64,000 nt of DNA from an uncultured Gemmatimonadales bacterium (GTDB lineage Bacteria; Gemmatimonadota; Gemmatimonadetes; Gemmatimonadales; GWC2-71-9): positions 1 to 64,000 of the forward strand of contig CAWGSK010000004.1 in assembly GCA_963825055.1 (NCBI GenBank), written 5' to 3'. The notes below the pieces were generated by a model. The model saw only the letters and a list, made by a program, of their open reading frames with translations, searched no databases and was not told the origin of the DNA. A program made the position numbers and the translations under genes. Shown piece after piece: positions 13,921 to 50,660 of the stretch; the stretch's first letter is position 1; each line of letters begins with the position of its first letter.

Positions 13921-14682
13921 ATGATGACCATCCTGGGCTACCTGCTCGCGATACTGATCGGGCTCTCCCTGGGCCTCCTGGGGGGTGGCGGATCCACCCT
14001 GACGGTGCCCGTCCTCCATTACGTCCTCCACTACGGCGTCAGGGAATCGGTGGCCATGAGCCTTCTCGTGGTGGGGCTCACCAGTCTCTTCGGGGTCTGG
14101 ACCCATCGACGCGCGGGCAACCTGAACTTCCGGGCCGCCCTGGCCTTCGGCCCGATGGCGATCGTGGGATCCCTCCTGGGCGCCGAGCTGGCGCTCCACG
14201 TGAGCGCCCTGTTTCAGCTCACCCTCTTTGGCGGGGTGATGCTGGTGGCCTCGGTGTCGATGTTCCTGGGCAGAAACCTCATTGCCCGGGCCTCGGAGAG
14301 GCCCCGCCGCCACGGGATCTGGTCCTGGCTGTTCATGGCCTTTCTGGGGGGTGCGGTCGGGGTCCTGACGGGTCTAGTGGGTGTGGGAGGGGGGTTCCTG
14401 TACGTCCCGGCGCTTGTGCTGGTGGGTGGGCTCAGCATGAAGGAGTCGGTCGGTACCAGCCTCCTGTTGATCATGCTGAGCTGCGCCGCGAGCTTCACCC
14501 ACTACCTGGGCAAGGTCCCCATGGACTGGACGATGATGGTCTGGTTCACCCTGCTGGCCTTTGCAGGCGTCACGGCCGGAACGGCCCTGGTGAAGCGGAT
14601 CTCCCAGGACGGCCTGCGGCGGGCGTTTGCGGTCTTCCTGTTCGTGATGGCGGTGGGAATCCTGGCGTTCGGGCGGTCGTGA
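13921..14682 (+). CDS. sulfite exporter TauE/SafE family protein
   Basis: LGLLGGGGSTLTVP and TGLVGVGGGFLYVP repeats; VGTSLL. Confidence 0.88.
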   Translation: MMTILGYLLAILIGLSLGLLGGGGSTLTVPVLHYVLHYGVRESVAMSLLVVGLTSLFGVWTHRRAGNLNFRAALAFGPMAIVGSLLGAELALHVSALFQLTLFGGVMLVASVSMFLGRNLIARASERPRRHGIWSWLFMAFLGGAVGVLTGLVGVGGGFLYVPALVLVGGLSMKESVGTSLLLIMLSCAASFTHYLGKVPMDWTMMVWFTLLAFAGVTAGTALVKRISQDGLRRAFAVFLFVMAVGILAFGRS

Positions 14683-14808
14683 CGGTCCGAAGGTGAGTTG
14701 CGGTCTGGATTCGGGCGGTCGGGGCAGTCTGAAGGGGAGTCACGGTCCGGAATCGGGCGGTCGGGGCGGTCCGAAAGGGAGCTTCGCTCTGGAATCGGGC
14801 GGTCATGG
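14683..14808. repeat. 3 x 42-bp tandem repeat
   Basis: Units at 14683, 14725 and 14767, each c(g/a)gtcyga...ggawtcgggcggtc... Confidence 0.8.
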
Positions 14809-14874
14809 CGGTCGAGGCGGTCGACCGTCCTGTCCGCCCTGTCCGTCTTGTCCGTCCCGCCCGCCTAGACCTCC

Positions 14875-15040: not shown

Positions 15041-15490
15041 ATGCGTGTATCAGTTGCCCGCCGGAACTGGGATCCGGCCGATTTTGCGGGCCTGAGCCGG
15101 CTCAACCGGATGTTCGACGACCCGTTTGCGGGCCCCTGGGGCCAGGACCAGATGACCGGCTCGTGGGTGCCGGTCTGCGACATTTTCGAGGACGAAAACG
15201 GCCTCAAGCTGATCGCCGAGGTGCCGGGAGTGAGGGCCGAGGACGTGAAGATCTCGGTGGAGAACAACACCCTCACCATCCGGGGCGAGAAGAAGCAGGT
15301 GGCGGAGGAGAAGACGGAACGGGTGCACCGCTACGAGCGGTCCTACGGCAGTTTCGAGCGCGCCTTCGCGCTGCCGAGCACGGTCGACCCCGAGGGAATC
15401 GAGGCCGACTACCAGAACGGCCTGCTCACGGTTGTGATGCCGAAGGCCGAGCGAGCCAGGCCGAGAGAGATTCCGGTGAAGACGAAGTGA
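15041..15490 (+). CDS. Hsp20/alpha-crystallin small heat shock protein
   Basis: ERSYGSFERAFALP, ADYQNGLLTV; AAGGAGG RBS. Confidence 0.95.
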   Translation: MRVSVARRNWDPADFAGLSRLNRMFDDPFAGPWGQDQMTGSWVPVCDIFEDENGLKLIAEVPGVRAEDVKISVENNTLTIRGEKKQVAEEKTERVHRYERSYGSFERAFALPSTVDPEGIEADYQNGLLTVVMPKAERARPREIPVKTK

Positions 15491-15590
15491 GTAGTGAGTA
15501 GTGAGTAGTGAGTAGTGCTTCACGGAAGGTGCCGGTGCGGGAGATCGAAGCCCACCCTGAAACACTACTCACTAGTCACTAGTCACTAGT
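15486..15590. repeat. inverted heptamer arrays (AGTGAGT)n ... (CACTAGT)n between convergent genes
   Basis: agtgagt x4, then cactact cactagt cactagt cactagt. Confidence 0.75.
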
Positions 15591-15792
15591 CCAGCGTAAA
15601 TCCCACCTTCACTGTCACCTGCCAGTGGCTGACCGAGCCGTCCTCGAGATGCCCCCGGGTCTCCAGGACCTCGAACCAGCGCATGTTGCGCACCGTCTGC
15701 GAGGCACGGGTGATCGCCTTGGTGACGGCGTCCTCGATTCCGACCTTGGACGAGCCGACCAGTTCGAGCGTCTTGTAGACGTGATCCGACAT
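15586..15792 (-). CDS. dodecin (flavin-binding)
   Basis: [42 protein letters not shown]. Confidence 0.95.
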
Positions 15793-23871: not shown

Positions 23872-24203
23872 TGTTCCGCGACGCGGCTCCCCGGCTCCAG
23901 CGCATGCTCGCCTCGTACCTCGACGGCGGTCGCAACCTGGTCGAGTTCCAGCGCGAATTCCTCGAGTATTACGTCCGGCTGCCTGCCGGCGCACTCGCGC
24001 CCGGGGACGCTTCCTTCTGGCATGAGGCGTTCGGACTGGTGACGCGTGCAGCGTCGGAACCCGCTGACGGCGCCCTTGGCGATGCCGAACTCAAGGAGGG
24101 CCTGGGGGGGTTGTGGAGGGGGAGGCAAAGCCGGGTGTCGGGCATCGGGCATCGGGCATCGGGCATCGGGGGCCGGGAGCCGGGAGCCGGGAGTAGGGGG
24201 TAG
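23871..24203 (+). CDS. small hypothetical protein, weak resemblance to colicin D immunity-like fold
   Basis: TGATG coupling to the MFP gene; YLDG...EFQREFLEYY...GDAELKE; C-terminus runs into heptamer repeats. Confidence 0.5.
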   Translation: MFRDAAPRLQRMLASYLDGGRNLVEFQREFLEYYVRLPAGALAPGDASFWHEAFGLVTRAASEPADGALGDAELKEGLGGLWRGRQSRVSGIGHRASGIGGREPGAGSRG

Positions 24204-24465
24204 GCAGTAGGGAGTCGGCAGTCGGCAGTCGGCAATCGGCAATCGGCAGTCGGCAGTCGGCAGTCGAAGGAAACCGTGTCATCCCGAGCGTTCAGCGAGG
24301 GATCTTCCGGCCCGGGATCGAGCGTCTTTGCAAGCAAAGCGGAGTTCGATTGCCTGCTGACAAGATCTCTCGGACCTCCGAAGCCACGTCTGCTTATCTT
24401 CTGCCGATACCCGATACCCGATACCCGATACCCGATACCCGATACCCGATACCCCCGATACCCGG
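24137..24465. repeat. composite heptamer arrays flanking a REP-like palindrome
   Basis: (TCGGGCA)n, (CCGGGAG)n, (TCGGCAR)n, then GTGTCATCCCGAGCG-TTCAG-CGAGGGATCT at 24276-24305, then about 8 x CCGATAC. Confidence 0.85.
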
Positions 24466-24474
24466 GAGCCCCCC

Positions 24475-26940: not shown

Positions 26941-27064
26941 AACAGCCTTACCACAGAGGACACAGAGAACACAAAGGAATCGTATCAGCCTAGATTCCTG
27001 AGGCGCTCAAGGCACCTGCCGGTGCTGAGCGCCTTCTTTGTGTCCGTTGTGCTCTTTGTGGTAA
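26941..27064. repeat. nonamer-arm inverted repeat element (ACCACAGAG family)
   Basis: TTACCACAGAGGACACAGAGAACACAAAG ... CTTTGTGTCCGTTGTGCTCTTTGTGGTAA with an internal hairpin. Confidence 0.7.
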
Positions 27065-32336: not shown

Positions 32337-32548
32337 GGAGTCGACAATCGGCAACCGGCAATCGGCAACCGGCAGTCGGCGAGTGGCTGGTGGAACGTCC
32401 CATCTCGAGCGAAGCGAGAGATCTCAAGGGTTGGGCGCTATCGAAGGCGGCCCTTGAGATCTCTCGGGCCTGGACGGCCCTCGAGATGACACGTCCTGGG
32501 ATAACCTGACCGCCCTGACCGCCCTGACCGCCTGACCGCCCTGACCGT
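32337..32548. repeat. heptamer array, REPIN-like long hairpin (32401-32492) and nonamer/octamer array
   Basis: (CGGCAAY)n; CGAGAGATCTCAAGGG/CCCTTGAGATCTCTCG and CATCTCGAG/CTCGAGATG stems; (CTGACCGCC)n. Confidence 0.8.
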
Positions 32549-33312: not shown

Positions 33313-33398
33313 CCGCCTGCCTTAACTGCCTCAACACAAAGGGCACAAAGAACACGAAGGAGTGTAAAGGTGGGTCTGCTGATCGGGCCCACCTTTTC

Positions 33399-33900
33399 TA
33401 CGTAGGTGATGTCCGCGGCCCACACCTGATTGGGACCGGTGACGCGGAAGTCCCGGGCCAGACGATTCGGCGCCGGCTCCGCCCGCGGATGGCGGCGGGT
33501 CGTCATGCGCCAGCGGCGCCGACTGACGGCGAACAGCCCCTGCGCGCGCATGAGGCGGGCGACCCGGTGCCGCCCGCAGCGGTAGCCCTCCGCCTGGAGA
33601 GCCCGCAGCATCCGCGGACTCCCGTACGTGGCATCGCTGGCCTGATACAGGGCCTGCATCCGGGTCACCAGCACGGTGTTCTCCCGCGCCCGAGCACTGG
33701 GCTCCCGCCGCCGCCACGCGTAATAGCTGCTCCGCGCGACCCCGAGCACCCGGCACATCAGCCCCAGCGGAAACTGGCTCCGGTAGCGATGCATACAGGC
33801 GCACCTCACCGAGACTCGCGCGCAAAAAACGCCGTGGCTTTTTTTAAAAAGTCCCGCTCCTGGCGCACCAGCGCCAGCTCGCGCTCCAGCTGCCGCACGT
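33399..33900 (-). mobile_element. IS3-family transposase remnant (3' end of orfA plus 5' half of orfB)
   Basis: RQLERELALVRQERDFLKKATAFFA; A7G slippery site at 33838-33845; CRVLGVARSSYY, YGSPRM, PNQVWAADITYV, then truncated; no terminal IRs seen. Confidence 0.88.
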
Positions 33901-33954
33901 TGTTGTTCTTTGTGTCCTTCGTGTCCTCTGTGGTAAGGCTGTTCTGGCCGGGTC

Positions 33955-35576: not shown

Positions 35577-36914
35577 ATGCCCCGTATGCCGCTCGCCATC
35601 GTTTCCCTCGCCCTGCTGGCAGGCTGCTCAGGCGGCATGCGGGCGCCCGCCGTGGGCCCGGAGGACATTCCTGCCCTCGAAGCCCGGCACGAGACTGACC
35701 CCGCCGACGCCCCCACGATGCTGGCCCTGGGTATCGCCTACTACGAGGCGGGCCGGTATTCGCCCGCCAGGGACGTGCTGGCGTCCCTCTCGGCGGTGGC
35801 CCCGGAGTCGGTGAACGGAGCGATTTACCTCGCCCGGTCCTGGACAGCACTCGGCGACCTCGACTCGGCGCAGGCCGCCCTCGATCGGGCTTCCTCGCAC
35901 TCCCCCTCAAGGGCGGAGCGGGGGGCGCTGGAGGACGAGCGCGCCGTGCTCGCCCGGGAGGAGATGACGAGCGCGGCACGGCTGGCGCTGGCGCAGGAGT
36001 CAACTCTTGCGAGCAGTCCCCCCGTCGCGAATACCGTCGCCGTTTTCCCTTTCCGCTACCTGGGCAGCGATGAGTCGCTGCGGCCGCTCGAACGGGGCAT
36101 GGCGTACCTGATGGTGAGTGACCTGAGCCAGGTGGCCCGGCTCCGCCTTCTCGAGCGGGAGCGGGTGCAGGCCCTGGTGGACGAGATGGCGCTGGCTGAG
36201 TCGGGGCGGGTGGATCCCTCCACGGGGGCCAGGTCCGGCCGCCTGCTCAAGGCCGAGCACGTGATTCAGGGAACCCTGCGCGAGCCCGAGGGGAAGACCG
36301 AGCTGCTCGCCGACGCATCGGCGGTGAATACCAGCGACGCGCGGGTAGCAGCCACGGGCTCCGCGCAGGATCGCCTGCAGGACCTGTTCGACATCGAGCA
36401 ATCGCTCGTCATGCAGCTGCTGGGCGAGATGGGGACTCCCCTCACACCGGCTGAACGGCGGGCGATCGGTCGGCGCCCCACGTCAGATATGCAGGCCTTC
36501 CTCGCTTTCAGTCGGGGGCTCGAGGCGGAAGACCGGGGTGACTTCGCGGCAGCTGCGGAGGCCTACGCCGAGGCGGAGCAGCGGGATCCCCGCTTCAGCG
36601 CGGCCCAGCGACGGCGGCAGCAGGCCCGGAGACTGGCTGCGGCGTTTCGTGACCGGCCGCTGCGATTCGCCGGCCGTGATCTCCCGCCGGCGCTACGCAC
36701 CCGGCTTACTGACCTGCGCTCCCCGCCGGGCCGAAGCGGCGCCCTGCGGGACCTCGTCGTATCGACCGTGCCCGGGGCGTCGGACCACTTCGGGCGAAGG
36801 CTCGGGACCCGGCCTCCGGGAGCGAGACGTGCGCTGGCCGAGGCTCTCAGGCAGGACGACCTCCGGGTTACGTCGCAGCTTGGTGAGATCATCATCCTGA
36901 TCGTCCGTCCATGA
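35577..36914 (+). CDS. TPR plus CsgG/TolB-N-like lipoprotein
   Basis: Lipobox LAGC; TPRs; VAVFPF, LLERERVQALVDE, ARSGRLLKAEHVIQG. Confidence 0.75.
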   Translation: MPRMPLAIVSLALLAGCSGGMRAPAVGPEDIPALEARHETDPADAPTMLALGIAYYEAGRYSPARDVLASLSAVAPESVNGAIYLARSWTALGDLDSAQAALDRASSHSPSRAERGALEDERAVLAREEMTSAARLALAQESTLASSPPVANTVAVFPFRYLGSDESLRPLERGMAYLMVSDLSQVARLRLLERERVQALVDEMALAESGRVDPSTGARSGRLLKAEHVIQGTLREPEGKTELLADASAVNTSDARVAATGSAQDRLQDLFDIEQSLVMQLLGEMGTPLTPAERRAIGRRPTSDMQAFLAFSRGLEAEDRGDFAAAAEAYAEAEQRDPRFSAAQRRRQQARRLAAAFRDRPLRFAGRDLPPALRTRLTDLRSPPGRSGALRDLVVSTVPGASDHFGRRLGTRPPGARRALAEALRQDDLRVTSQLGEIIILIVRP

Positions 36915-38023
36915 GGGCGCCTCCGTTCGCGGCGCTCCCACTCGCGCTTGTCCTGGCCGCCCCGCTGGTGGCGCAGGAGGGGATCTTCTCCGAGCGGGCC
37001 ATTGCCGGGGGCATCGAGGCCCGGCGCTATGACTTCGACGCCGGGCTGGGGAGCGAGTCCATCAGGCAGGTGGCGTTCCCGTTCGCAGCGGTCATCCCGC
37101 TGACCAACCGTTTTTCGGTGGATGTCGGGACGGCGTATGCCACCACGACCGTGTCAGGATCTGGAGGTGCCGAGGAGTCGTTCTCGGGACTGACGGACAC
37201 GCAGGTCCGGATGGCCTACGTGTTCGGCAGGGACGTGGTGGTGGCGAGCCTGCTGGTCAATCTCCCCACGGGTGACCAGAGCATCAGCCTGACCAAGTTC
37301 GCCGTCGTGGGTGCGGCCTCCTCGAACTTCCTCTCCTTCCCTGTTTCCTCGTATGGCACCGGCACCTGGGCAACGGGTGGCGCGGCCGCGGCGTTCCCCG
37401 CCGGCGCCTGGACCATTGGAATCGCTGCCAGCGCCCGTGTGAGCGGTTCCTACGAGCCCTTTACCGACAGCGGTGAGGATTTCACCTATGACCCCGGGAT
37501 CGAGACCCGTCTCCGCCTCGGGGTCGACCGCCTGCTCGGCTCGAGCCGGCTCACGGCCGGTTTCACGTTCAGCACTTTCGGGACGGACGACTTCCGGTCC
37601 ACCGGCACATCGACGGTCAGCGGGACCTACCAGCCCGGCAACCGGTACATCGGGCAACTCGCCCTGATCTCCCCGCTCGGCAGCGGTACCCTGAGCACAT
37701 ATGCCTGGGACTACTACCGGAACGCGTCAGGGGGTACGAGTGGGATCCCGAACAGCGAGAACGTCCTCACCGCCGGGGCCACGGGTTCATGGCCCCTGGG
37801 CCGTACCCTCCGGCTCGAGCCGTTAGCCGAGGCACGATTCTGGGCCCCAGAAGGTGGAACCGGACGGATGTTCGGTGGCGGACTCTCCCTCGTGATCCCG
37901 ATCGGGGACCTTGAGATAGTGCCGGGTGGCCGCTTCGATGCCGGAAGCGTGGAGAACGAAGCGGGCGCATCGGTGGATGTGACCGGATGGGAGGCGACGA
38001 TGAGTGTGAAAATGAGGATTTAG
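36911..38023 (+). CDS. putative outer membrane beta-barrel protein
   Basis: Signal peptide; GLTDTQVR, NLPTG (MetA-pathway/PKD-type barrel style); alternating strands. Confidence 0.6.
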   Translation: MRAPPFAALPLALVLAAPLVAQEGIFSERAIAGGIEARRYDFDAGLGSESIRQVAFPFAAVIPLTNRFSVDVGTAYATTTVSGSGGAEESFSGLTDTQVRMAYVFGRDVVVASLLVNLPTGDQSISLTKFAVVGAASSNFLSFPVSSYGTGTWATGGAAAAFPAGAWTIGIAASARVSGSYEPFTDSGEDFTYDPGIETRLRLGVDRLLGSSRLTAGFTFSTFGTDDFRSTGTSTVSGTYQPGNRYIGQLALISPLGSGTLSTYAWDYYRNASGGTSGIPNSENVLTAGATGSWPLGRTLRLEPLAEARFWAPEGGTGRMFGGGLSLVIPIGDLEIVPGGRFDAGSVENEAGASVDVTGWEATMSVKMRI

Positions 38024-38084
38024 GGGCGGGCGGGACGGATAGATGTGACAGGGCGAACAGGACGGAAGATGAGCTGATGTGTTC

Positions 38085-38641
38085 AAAATATTGCGATTTC
38101 TAGGAAAATTTGAGTGATTTTGCCTCTTTTTGGAAGTTTTCTGACCCATTTAACGCAACATATATACTGCCCCACCAACGGATGAGTCAGACAAGGCACA
38201 CCTCGATCGCGGAAAGACGACGGCGGTGAGCTTCAGGAGCAGGTCGTCAATTATTGATGATAATTGGGCAAAATTGCTCGATTTCATGTTAAAATTGGCC
38301 AATTTTGATAACCTTTGGGAGTTTCGAGCCGGTGAAGCGATCACTCTGTTCTAGCGCTGCGATCTTCCCAGGGCATGGCCTTGAAGCATCCAATCAGCTT
38401 TCGTCACTAAAATTGGCTGGAATTGCCTGAATTATTGAGAAAATAGGCGAAAACGGCACGATTCTGGATAAAACGAAGGAACTACTGGCCCCACGAATGG
38501 GATGGGGGAACTTGGATGAGGCACGCTCCGAGACATCTCTCCCGGCAACGGAGTTGATGTGACCAGAATATGGCTAATCTAGCTGAAAATCGATGAATTC
38601 GAGTGAGTTTTGTGCAAATAGACGCAAAATTGCCTGATTTT
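38085..38641. other. four blocks of helically phased A/T tracts (predicted curved DNA)
   Basis: A/T tracts every ~10-11 bp in blocks starting ~38085, 38249, 38409 and 38567-38586; no convincing ORF. Confidence 0.7.
38148..38176 (-). other. dif/XerCD-like site
   Basis: Minus strand GGTGGGGCAGTA-TATATG-TTGCGTTAAAT; right arm matches E. coli XerD arm TTATGTTAAAT at 9/11. Confidence 0.35.
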
Positions 38642-38703
38642 GCCATGATGTGGGCATACCGGCCGCCTTGTCTGTCCCGTCCGTCTTCTCCGCCTCATCT
38701 CGC

Positions 38704-38732
38704 TTGACTCCCCCATAGGCGGGTACTACGTT
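38704..38732 (+). promoter_or_regulatory. sigma-70 promoter of the histone-like gene
   Basis: TTGACT-N17-TACGTT; GGAGGA RBS before GTG 38801. Confidence 0.55.
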
Positions 38733-38800: not shown

Positions 38801-39364
38801 GTGGCCACGGAACTCGGCGGCTCACAAATCTCGAACCTGCTTGAAACGCTCCCCGGCATTGCCAGCGTGCTGCGGAGCCCTGTCGCGGATGCCCTGGTCA
38901 ACGTGATCAGGGCGGCGGCCGGTGAGGCCGATTTCCAGGAAGACGACGCCGAGGAACTGATCCGGTACGCGGTCCGGCGTGGTCTGGTTGGGGCCGAAGA
39001 AGGGGAGCAGGTGCTCTCCGAGGTACAGAAGAACCCGAGGCCCAAGGCCAAGGCCACCAAACCAGCTCCGAAACCGAAGCCGACCAAGGCCCACGCCCCG
39101 CAGCCGATCGAGCAGAAGCCGGTGAAGAAGGCCAAAGCCACAAAGAAGGCCGCCGCCAAGGTCAAGCCCAAGGCAAAGCCGAAGCCTAAGCCGAAGTCCA
39201 GGCTGAAGTCGAAGCCCAAGCCGAAGCCCAAGCCGAAGTCCAGGGCGAAGGCCGGCAAGCCGAAGGGTAAGGCCAGGGCCACACCGAAGAGGAAGGTCGC
39301 GAAGAAGTCAGCGAAGAAGGCGGCGAAGAAGAAGGTGACGAAGCCAATCCGCCGTAAGCGCTGA
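38801..39364 (+). CDS. histone H1-like Lys/Ala/Pro-rich DNA-binding protein
   Basis: Acidic globular N-terminus followed by ~110 aa of PKAK/KKAA repeats. Confidence 0.75.
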   Translation: MATELGGSQISNLLETLPGIASVLRSPVADALVNVIRAAAGEADFQEDDAEELIRYAVRRGLVGAEEGEQVLSEVQKNPRPKAKATKPAPKPKPTKAHAPQPIEQKPVKKAKATKKAAAKVKPKAKPKPKPKSRLKSKPKPKPKPKSRAKAGKPKGKARATPKRKVAKKSAKKAAKKKVTKPIRRKR

Positions 39365-39379: not shown

Positions 39380-39408
39380 AAGGCCCCCGGTGGTGGCGGG
39401 GGCCTTTT
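39380..39408 (+). terminator. intrinsic (possibly bidirectional) terminator
   Basis: AAGGCCCCCG-loop-CGGGGGCCTTTT between convergent genes. Confidence 0.75.
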
Positions 39409-43858: not shown

Positions 43859-44018
43859 GGTGGGATGTGGAGTGTAATAAAGAGGTGGTCAGGCGGACAG
43901 GCGGGCAGGGCGGTCGGACACTACTCCACGATTCAACTACTCAACGTTGCTTCCCGATTCCCGATCCCCCACCATCCCTCCTTCCCCTTCGCACAATTCT
44001 TGCTAGGTTGCACCACAT

Positions 44019-45923: not shown

Positions 45924-45999
45924 GGGGGTAGGCCCGCCGACAAGGCGGAGGGGCGGACGGGACGGACGACTCAACGACTCAACGACTCAACGACACCCG

Positions 46000-49546: not shown

Positions 49547-50574
49547 GCACCACCAACCTCTTTGCTGAGCAGGAAGCCAACCGGCGCAGCTCTGCCTGGC
49601 TCATCGCCGGGTTCATCCTCTTCTTCGCCTGGCTCGGCTTCGGCGGTGACCTCGCCTGGTACCTGATGACCCGGGGCTCGCCCGATGGCGGGGCGCACCT
49701 GGTGCCGGTCCTGGGAATCGTGATGCTGGCACTGGCCGGGGGGATCGCCTGGACCTCCTTCCGCAACGGCCCACAGCGGGTGCTGTGGTCGACCGGCGCA
49801 TGGGAGATCATCGAACCTGCCACCGAGGCCCAGAAGCGCCTGGTCAACGTGGTGGAGGAGATGGCGATCGCGTCGGGCATTCCGAGACCGCGGGTCTGGG
49901 TGGTGCCCGACGCCGACCCGAACGCCTTCGCCACGGGGCTCGACACGGACCGGGCGAACATTGCCGTGACCGAGGGGCTGCTCCAGACCCTGAGCCGGGA
50001 CGAGCTGCAGGGCGTCGTGGCGCACGAGATGGCTCATATCAGGAATCTCGACGTGCGCCTGATGACACTGCTCGCAGCGATGGTCGGCGCGATTGCGCTG
50101 CTGTCCGACGGCGCCGGCCGCCTGCTCCGCGGGGCACGCGTGCCCTCCGGCGCCGCCCGCCGTGCCGGCGGGAAGAAAGGCGGCCAGCTCGGCCTGATCG
50201 TCCTGGTTTTCTGGCTGATCAGCCTCGTACTCGCGCCCATCATTTCCCGGCTGCTGTCGATGGCCGTGAGCCGCCGGAGGGAGTACCTGGCGGACGCGAC
50301 CGGGGCACAGTTCACCCGGAACCCCGTGGCGCTGGCGCACGCGCTCGAGAAGCTGGAGGGTGCAACCGGGGCCACACGATCCATCAAGCAGGGTTCGGCG
50401 CACCTCTGCATCGTGGACCCCCAGGCCCGAGCGATCAGCAGCCGCGAGGGATTCCTGGGGGATTTCCTCGCGTCACATCCCCCGATGCGCCAGCGCATCG
50501 CGAGACTCAAGGCAATGGGGTATCAGATGGAGAAGCAGGGAATGGGGAGTAGGGAGTTAGGGAGTAGGGAGTAG
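49543..50574 (+). CDS. htpX: M48 zinc metalloprotease HtpX-like
   Basis: PNAFATG, VVAHEMAHIRN, REYLADA, SHPP. Confidence 0.88.
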   Translation: MSTTNLFAEQEANRRSSAWLIAGFILFFAWLGFGGDLAWYLMTRGSPDGGAHLVPVLGIVMLALAGGIAWTSFRNGPQRVLWSTGAWEIIEPATEAQKRLVNVVEEMAIASGIPRPRVWVVPDADPNAFATGLDTDRANIAVTEGLLQTLSRDELQGVVAHEMAHIRNLDVRLMTLLAAMVGAIALLSDGAGRLLRGARVPSGAARRAGGKKGGQLGLIVLVFWLISLVLAPIISRLLSMAVSRRREYLADATGAQFTRNPVALAHALEKLEGATGATRSIKQGSAHLCIVDPQARAISSREGFLGDFLASHPPMRQRIARLKAMGYQMEKQGMGSRELGSRE

Positions 50575-50660
50575 GGAGTAGGAGCAGGGGTAGATGGTTA
50601 GTCGTTGAGCCGTTGAGTGGTTGAGTTGTCGGTTCGTCCGTCCTGTCCGTCCTGTCCGAG
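50545..50660. repeat. heptamer (GGGAGTA), octamer (CGTTGAGT) and nonamer (GTCCGTCCT) arrays
   Basis: Directly visible between convergent genes. Confidence 0.7.

Follow-up and report, generated by a model that had tools for sequence, protein, structure and literature searches.

Four discrete blocks of helically phased A/T tracts with strong predicted curvature in an intergenic insert of a Gemmatimonadales bacterium

Results

The window analysed here is a 64,000-nucleotide stretch from the genome of an uncultured Gemmatimonadales bacterium with a GC content of 67%. In this window a gene coding for a 370 aa protein with a signal peptide (36911..38023, + strand), which is the second of a TPR/CsgG-like gene pair and has no Pfam or NCBIfam family, is separated by a 777 bp gap from a gene coding for a 187 aa Lys-rich protein (38801..39364, + strand). 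The TAG stop codon of the upstream gene occupies 38021-38023, and an insert begins at the next base (38024) with a G-rich left arm (38024..38054, + strand). A C-rich right arm (38665..38694, − strand), inverted with respect to the left one, ends directly before a sigma-70-type promoter look-alike of the Lys-rich gene at the right edge of the insert (TTGACT, 17 bp, TACGTT; 38704..38732, + strand). Both arms are degenerate members of the GGACAGGCG-type short tandem repeat family, which forms 116 arrays in this genome. Past the Lys-rich gene, and before a convergent MCP gene, lies a terminator candidate (39380..39406, no strand assigned), a hairpin with T runs on both sides that is likely a bidirectional terminator.

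Between the arms lie four blocks of A/T tracts, to which no strand is assigned. Block 1 (38085..38151) holds seven phased tracts; block 2 (38249..38306) holds six and is followed by weaker TTT runs out to ~38326; block 3 (38409..38473) has six tracts that are 4 bp or longer and, at 38461, a 3 bp ATT; and block 4 (38586..38641), also with six phased tracts, ends 62 bp 5′ of the −35 box. An earlier note on this DNA had listed 26 tract starts, 25 of which do mark the exact start of an AnTm tract no shorter than 4 bp, the exception being the ATT at 38461. The blocks are 56-67 bp long (roughly 65 bp) and have best periods of 9.95-10.3 bp. Their GC content is 30-36% compared with 56-62% in the linkers, in agreement with the GC-richer linkers described in that note. 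Its recurrence of about 160 bp holds for the starts of the blocks, which are 164, 160 and 177 bp apart. The phasing between blocks is not significant, its coherence of 0.80 being matched by 35% of 1000 random offsets. The AAAATT-N4-RATTTT palindrome that it proposed as a common form is perfect over 16 bp at 38291-38306, but three other look-alikes are self-complementary at only 8-10 of 16 positions.

The earlier note had also called for the ~10 bp periodicity to be measured against the rest of the genome. We scanned the 3.53 Mb genome for AA/TT/AT steps in 70 bp windows at periods of 10.0-10.9, and the four blocks took ranks 1 to 4. Among 41 peaks with an amplitude of at least 9.5, block 1 came first (17.4), followed by block 3 (16.9), block 4 (16.8) and block 2 (15.3); the next best peak reached 13.7, and the 99.99th percentile of the background was 11.1 (100,919 sampled windows). 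Dinucleotide shuffles attained the observed amplitudes of blocks 1-4 in 0, 3, 0 and 0 cases out of 2000 each. Strong blocks are confined to this one locus in the genome. A 1019 bp contig from sequencing run X1 is identical to 37711-38729, without a single difference, and parts of the array are covered by runs X2-X4 from the same study, where no listed piece shows more than one difference; all four are soil metagenomes, and X1 may be the source sample. Given the exact match in X1 and the partial coverage in the three other runs, the array is no assembly error.

Neighbouring blocks resemble each other (pairs 1-2, 2-3 and 3-4, with 0-4 of 500 shuffles as similar). A ~160 bp tandem repeat was considered and rejected: whole units align above shuffles, but the linkers alone show no mutual similarity above them (best 11 of 500), which indicates that the similarity of the whole units stems from the tracts. 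Over the blocks, TRF found a single array, a 1.9-copy 10-mer at 38630-38649; the spacers between tracts are heterogeneous and the tracts persist. Arms and linkers also contain a GATG(A/T/G)G hexamer (within 38042..38699), present on the + strand at 38042, 38068, 38076, 38181, 38501, 38515, 38556 and 38647 and on the − strand at 38694. We regard these nine copies as a candidate protein-binding or repeat-derived motif, given that any one-wildcard hexamer occurred nine times in 4 of 1000 linker shuffles. A fixed phase of the hexamer relative to the tracts was discarded, as its positions are scattered.

The two arms are predicted to pair with each other (38025-38054 with 38665-38694, pair probabilities of 0.87-0.99). 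Their duplex energy of −45.9 kcal/mol, for arms chosen after inspection of the fold, compares with −34.6 ± 4.1 kcal/mol in shuffles and was reached by 11 of 1000. The inner flanks of the four blocks showed no pairing (p 0.19-0.99). This genome has 36 other arm pairs, and no block lies inside any of them (maximum amplitude 9.8). Intergenic tandem repeats of 7-9 bp abound in the genome, often as inverted pairs at gene ends. Tandem repeats of the window lie at 14669-14857, 15486-15591, 24130-24472, 26952-27060, 32341-32547, 43890-43969, 45944-45994 and 50537-50658, and at 33317-33932 a transposase-like fragment, putatively IS3-like, sits inside inverted 9 bp repeat arms directly after the stop codon of a signal peptidase gene.

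Strong curvature, expected in the earlier note, was borne out by prediction. A wedge model using the Bolshoy 1991 parameters assigned bends of ~132, ~129, ~83 and ~91 degrees to blocks 1 to 4, that is, 83-132 degrees per block compared with 12-21 per linker. The predicted ratio of end-to-end distance to contour length is 0.40, a value reached by none of 400 random genomic windows (median 0.92), and predicted curvature over ~73 bp is high, as expected of a plectoneme pinning site by the criterion of PMC6301789. The region also lacks a codon signal, its longest open frame has 70 codons, and a reading of it as non-coding, strongly bent DNA architecture is supported.

The Lys-rich gene was found in 40 of 41 genomes and is near-universal in the order. 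We collected 109 orthologous loci (29 + 80, some genomes possibly repeated), 104 of them with at least 800 bp of upstream sequence. None of these 104 carries a block upstream of the Lys-rich gene at an amplitude threshold of at least 11. The 370 aa gene is syntenic with the Lys-rich gene in 38 of the 109 loci, where the gap is 70-397 bp, and the same promoter motif lies at most 200 bp upstream in 73 of the 109. Because relatives have the short gap, lack the block and keep the promoter motif, the region from 38024 to ~38700 is, on sequence comparison, a lineage-specific expansion of ~680 bp inserted before an old promoter. The array is dispensable at the family level, as the promoter works without a block in 104 of 104 relative loci. 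By blastn, the only similar DNA in 150 family genomes consisted of short repeat-arm matches, and phages and plasmids yielded no homologues of the insert.

A sister strain is also present in run X1; over 315 bp of the upstream gene it shows 27 differences (~91% identical). Its gap is nearly as long (66 letters compared with 78, and 487 with 510, between anchors). Alignment at 80% or more is limited to 38104-38189, with 16 differences over 86 letters, and to the promoter, where 38700-38729 is identical; the 487-letter stretch that corresponds to blocks 2-4 was reported as unlike. The seven listed changes in 38135-38159 all fall outside tracts (P ~0.04, with nine more near the alignment ends unlisted). 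The insert is young, and its divergence outpaces that of the genes.

Next to the array, the Lys-rich protein comprises a conserved five-helix N-terminal domain and a 109 aa Lys/Pro/Ala tail with 40 Lys, the latter modelled as disordered and basic. The histone H1-like identity given in the earlier note did not hold: the protein has no H1 globular (winged-helix) domain and no Pfam match, and its all-helical model found no Foldseek match at E ≤ 0.001. A protein search of the ESM Atlas matched only unnamed Gemmatimonadota clusters (0.84). Many homologues are named phasin by JGI, and these names together with the tail fit a PhaF-type protein. Pseudomonas putida PhaF (PMC3574117) likewise combines a helical N-domain with a disordered Lys/Ala/Pro nucleoid-type tail; in contrast to PhaF, the protein studied here has a much shorter N-domain and no Pfam phasin match, and no PhaC_N gene was found in its 87%-complete genome. 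The tail has its 40 Lys where the 25 longest of 106 relatives do not exceed 25 (a single coincidence), and two relatives with longer proteins lack blocks. The proposal that array and protein work together is not supported in its obligate form, given that 0 of 104 orthologue loci have a block. The gene lies 30-180 kb from dnaA in 17 of the 18 genomes in which both share a contig and 357 kb in one; in 10 of 28 genomes they are on different contigs.

Across the Gemmatimonadota, single phased intergenic blocks are common and include perfect 10-11 bp tandem arrays. Among 70 loci selected by pattern (GC of at least 50%, partly overlapping), 34 held one strong block, seven held two and one held three. 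A three-block pattern matched none of 189 other family genomes and, besides our genome, gave two false loci in 400 genomes of the order, so most relatives lack such an array. Perfect to decaying intergenic 10-11 bp arrays with AATT/ATTT cores were seen at L088, L089 and L090 (genome G150), L116 (G035), L119 (G344), L120 (G434), L121 (G339) and L122 (G427). Sixteen matches to a two-block pattern were examined: six from genomes G617, G271 and G234 have multiple blocks, the one from G105 has none, and neither have 8 of the 9 regions outside the genus g17.

Genus g17 belongs to the same family, and six of its genomes carry 30 blocks of the same size as those described here, single or in pairs 123-185 bp apart, with a median period of 10.28 bp. 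In these regions, which were chosen for their blocks, 22 of the 30 lie beside a CTTCGCG-type repeat arm, against a 4.4% share of positions close to an arm. With the 30 bases nearest the arm left out, phase-locking of the tracts to the arm still holds (R 0.75 over 20 non-redundant units, which are related by descent). The units share one orientation and separate variable accessory genes (RHH + AbiEii-like, macro, DUF2779, PDDEXK_3 and Pua-like). Near-identical blocks of G617 flank an M16 peptidase pair, which is missing from this site in G193. Pairing of the flanks was significant in only 4 of 28 blocks. In orthologous g17 blocks, T positions are 56-80% identical vs 42-55% for G/C positions, a contrast possibly inflated by the alignment of low-complexity runs.

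The g17 block locus lies 18-25 kb from dnaA. A three-tract pattern searched genome-wide had 5 of 5, 6 of 7 and 2 of 3 matches at this locus and none in G105, and strong blocks are nearly confined to one locus in G157, G193 and G215. The g17 cases are largely one inherited orthologous locus, which we describe as a cassette-like hot spot ~20 kb from dnaA. It comprises L233/L234 (G157:C4:372,000-375,800), L235 (G215:C2:16,690-16,930), L099/L238 (G193:C9:124,830-127,620) and L269-L274 (G617, G271 and G234). The g17 arm profile had no match in our insert (46 of 100 shuffles scored equally). Homologue searches in two metagenome scans, and in one viral scan that used a g17 pattern, came back empty. 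Judged from such comparisons, the resemblance between g17 and the window is one of analogous architecture and not of sequence homology.

Discussion

The explanation to which we give an even chance is that the four ~65 bp bent modules are kept for their shape and serve as plectoneme tips, or as loops bent by HU/IHF, in the stretch from the upstream operon's end to the promoter of the Lys-rich gene. They would have arisen by local duplication or expansion of ~10 bp repeat units inside repeat-arm elements, for which the 10-11 bp AATT-core tandem arrays of other Gemmatimonadota are a plausible raw material, and selection would retain the shape of a module and not its sequence. Supercoils from the upstream operon would gather at the pre-bent arcs and, once pinned there, would buffer or tune the downstream promoter. 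The size of the blocks, close to a plectoneme tip of ~73 bp (PMC6301789), argues for bent modules, and the sister-strain and g17 orthologue changes, which spare the tracts, argue for selection on shape. On the other side, a single block would suffice for pinning and four are unexplained, the blocks show no significant mutual phasing, the array can be dispensed with in the family, and the insert has no match to the IHF consensus. Our genome has three HU/IHF-family matches. DnaA motifs are not present in the insert beyond chance, and there are four Fis motifs vs 1.9 expected.

We compared the array with published systems. In one of them, a single 75 bp curved insert pinned plectonemes, and hot spots were located ~100 nt 5′ of start sites in E. 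coli (Kim et al. 2018, PMC6301789). The blocks are similar in having ~70 bp of high predicted curvature, the last of them ~100-150 bp upstream of the inferred start site; they differ in forming four sites in series where that work had one, and pinning was measured there whereas curvature is predicted here. A-tract clusters have been modelled at loop apexes (PMC4761138), and those clusters and curved intergenic DNA (Tolstorukov 2005, as cited in PMC4761138) share with our array AnTm tracts one helical turn apart, an intergenic position near a gene start, a scale on the order of 100 bp and a proposed place at loop apexes. The present case departs from them in its four discrete ~65 bp clusters at 160-177 bp spacing within one gap, which are unique in this 67% GC genome, in its inverted tandem-repeat arms and in its gain in one lineage.

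The E. coli gyrase motif, Mu SGS and BIME-2 (Sutormin et al., PMC6379681) are similar to the array in the helically periodic AT/GC content and in the position 3′ of a transcription unit. The gyrase motif has two 47 bp arms, a 36 bp centre and a period of 10.75 bp, in contrast to arms of 56-67 bp, gaps of ~95-112 bp separating the tract runs, jumps of 101-116 bp from the centre of one block to that of the next and a period of 9.95-10.3 here. The wrapping site for gyrase suggested in the earlier note is, as a single footprint, not supported, while there is room for gyrase binding to one block. REP/BIME elements (Ton-Hoang et al., PMC3333891) and the paired inverted heptamer repeats of Xanthomonas and Nostoc (Rehm et al., PMC4692102) appear to resemble the insert in having inverted arms at gene ends, a G-rich strand after the stop codon, linkers between arms and local amplification. 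They contrast with its degenerate 8-9 bp tandem-repeat arms, which are not Y1 REP hairpins, its bent linker without IHF consensus and its one cargo-bearing copy. Phased A-tract clusters are already known, and the new part is the modular, stacked, arm-bracketed layout. In the full-text literature outside subscription journals and supplements, we found no description of a fixed-size, stacked, arm-associated layout for this phylum.

A possible but unlikely alternative is that the blocks serve an undescribed gene-cassette system as sites of recombination or attachment, each a repeat arm plus a pre-bent spacer with BIME- or integron-like logic, so that the window would hold four empty sites whose cassettes were lost or not yet gained. 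What speaks for it comes from g17, where 22 of 30 blocks adjoin an arm to which their tracts are phase-locked, where co-oriented units separate variable accessory genes and where the blocks of G617 bracket the M16 peptidase pair, and from the insert itself, which is enclosed by inverted arms and starts at a stop codon. These points are countered by the mismatch between the g17 arm profile and the insert, by the unpaired inner flanks here and the 4 of 28 g17 blocks with pairing flanks, and by the 36 other arm pairs of our genome that enclose no block. Moreover, direct repeats may also result from ordinary duplication. An integron attC array was rejected: there is one chance-level half core of RYYYAAC...GTTRRRY and no attC core pair, and the only two tyrosine recombinase genes (PF00589) of the genome are on contigs C12 and C13, apart from the array contig C4. 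The arms were also rejected as REPs of the Y1 (TnpA-REP) genes, which are flanked by two other palindrome families. The wider proposal that Gemmatimonadales have undescribed mosaic elements, in which a ~65 bp pre-bent spacer rotationally locked to tandem-repeat arms would provide attachment sites that need no integrase and that collect and reorder accessory genes close to the replication origin, with four empty sites in the window, seems to us rather unlikely.

We also consider it rather improbable that the blocks are functionless remains of ~10 bp minisatellite expansions and their bending a by-product. Such an origin would suit a young insert that diverges faster than genes, the similarity of neighbouring blocks, the abundance of 7-9 bp intergenic tandem repeats and the perfect AATT/ATTT-core 10-11-mers of relatives. 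It sits poorly with the lack of TRF arrays over the blocks save the 1.9-copy 10-mer, with tracts that persist between heterogeneous spacers and are avoided by changes, and with a block length and period that are alike in two genera without common sequence.

It is more doubtful that the array is a once-per-chromosome, origin-proximal organising site (a strong gyrase site, or an SMC or nucleoid anchor), to which the neighbouring protein, its Lys-rich tail lengthened in the same lineage, might bind. The restriction of strong blocks to one locus here, and nearly so in three g17 genomes, is consistent with this idea, as are the 40-Lys tail, the proximity of the g17 locus and, mostly, of the Lys-rich gene to dnaA, and the absence of a canonical parS from our genome (best sites with 2-3 mismatches to the consensus, the best in a low-complexity stretch). 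Yet most relatives lack the array, the g17 cases amount to essentially one locus, C4 is unjoined to the dnaA contig, the gyrase geometry does not fit, and two relatives combine a longer protein with no blocks. A histone-wrapped array was rejected, as PF00808 and PF09123 were found in 0 of 12 genomes, ours being 87% complete.

Two further alternatives are very improbable. The first, which builds on the Xer accessory DNA raised in the earlier note, is that the blocks are of the cer/psi type and serve a dif-like 28-mer that overlaps the end of block 1 (38148..38175, − strand). This look-alike has a XerD-like arm with two mismatches to the E. coli arm and a centre identical to that of the genome's own dif at 5 of 6 positions, and it lies within the part of the gap best conserved in the sister strain. 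It is at chance level, though: over own dif centre and XerD arm it has 4 mismatches in 17, five other non-dif sites match equally with 3-4, and its XerC arm is poor. The sister strain changes 38152, 38158 and 38159, altering the XerD arm twice and the centre once. A better dif exists on C12, and the GC skew of C4 is one-signed overall, the skew switch being on C12. The likely chromosomal dif, C12:457,948-457,975, has both a tyrosine recombinase gene (C12:478,344) and the cumulative GC-skew peak (~484 kb) in its vicinity.

The second sees in the region a gene for a structured RNA, or else a low-GC protein gene that has decayed and whose amphipathic helices left the ~10.5 bp period; folding of the + strand is slightly better than that of 20 shuffles (z −2.0), but folding of the − strand is not (z 0.13), and Rfam gave two sub-threshold matches and none at gathering level. 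The decayed gene, which the earlier note had named as a way for its reading to fail, is contradicted by 4-15 stops per frame, a longest open frame of 70 codons and the absence of a 3 bp bias or codon signal, as well as by the lack of similar DNA in family genomes (beyond short repeat-arm matches), phages and plasmids.

Returning to bent modules kept for their shape, the function of curved intergenic DNA is disputed because it is usually diffuse. Here, the strongest predicted curvature of one GC-rich chromosome takes the form of four discrete modules, each the size of a plectoneme tip, at one site missing from close relatives, and this difference among relatives provides a clean with/without test of whether bends pin supercoils and tune a promoter. 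The same-sized, arm-locked modules that separate genes near oriC in g17 would represent a new kind of mosaic element if a recombination or chromosome-organising code proved true.

Some minor observations concern the rest of our genome. Long AT- or purine-rich low-complexity stretches at C7:185,628-192,280 and C11:105,327-109,081 are possibly assembly debris or contamination. Apparent duplicate segments, in line with a contamination of 6%, occur at C8:84,049 and C14:11,832 (a periodic window and its reverse complement) and at C13:97,727 and C27:5,892 (HU-family matches with identical scores). Finally, the Y1 transposase genes at C3:21,200-22,030 and C20:59,930-60,900 have their own REP-like palindrome families and resemble REPtrons.
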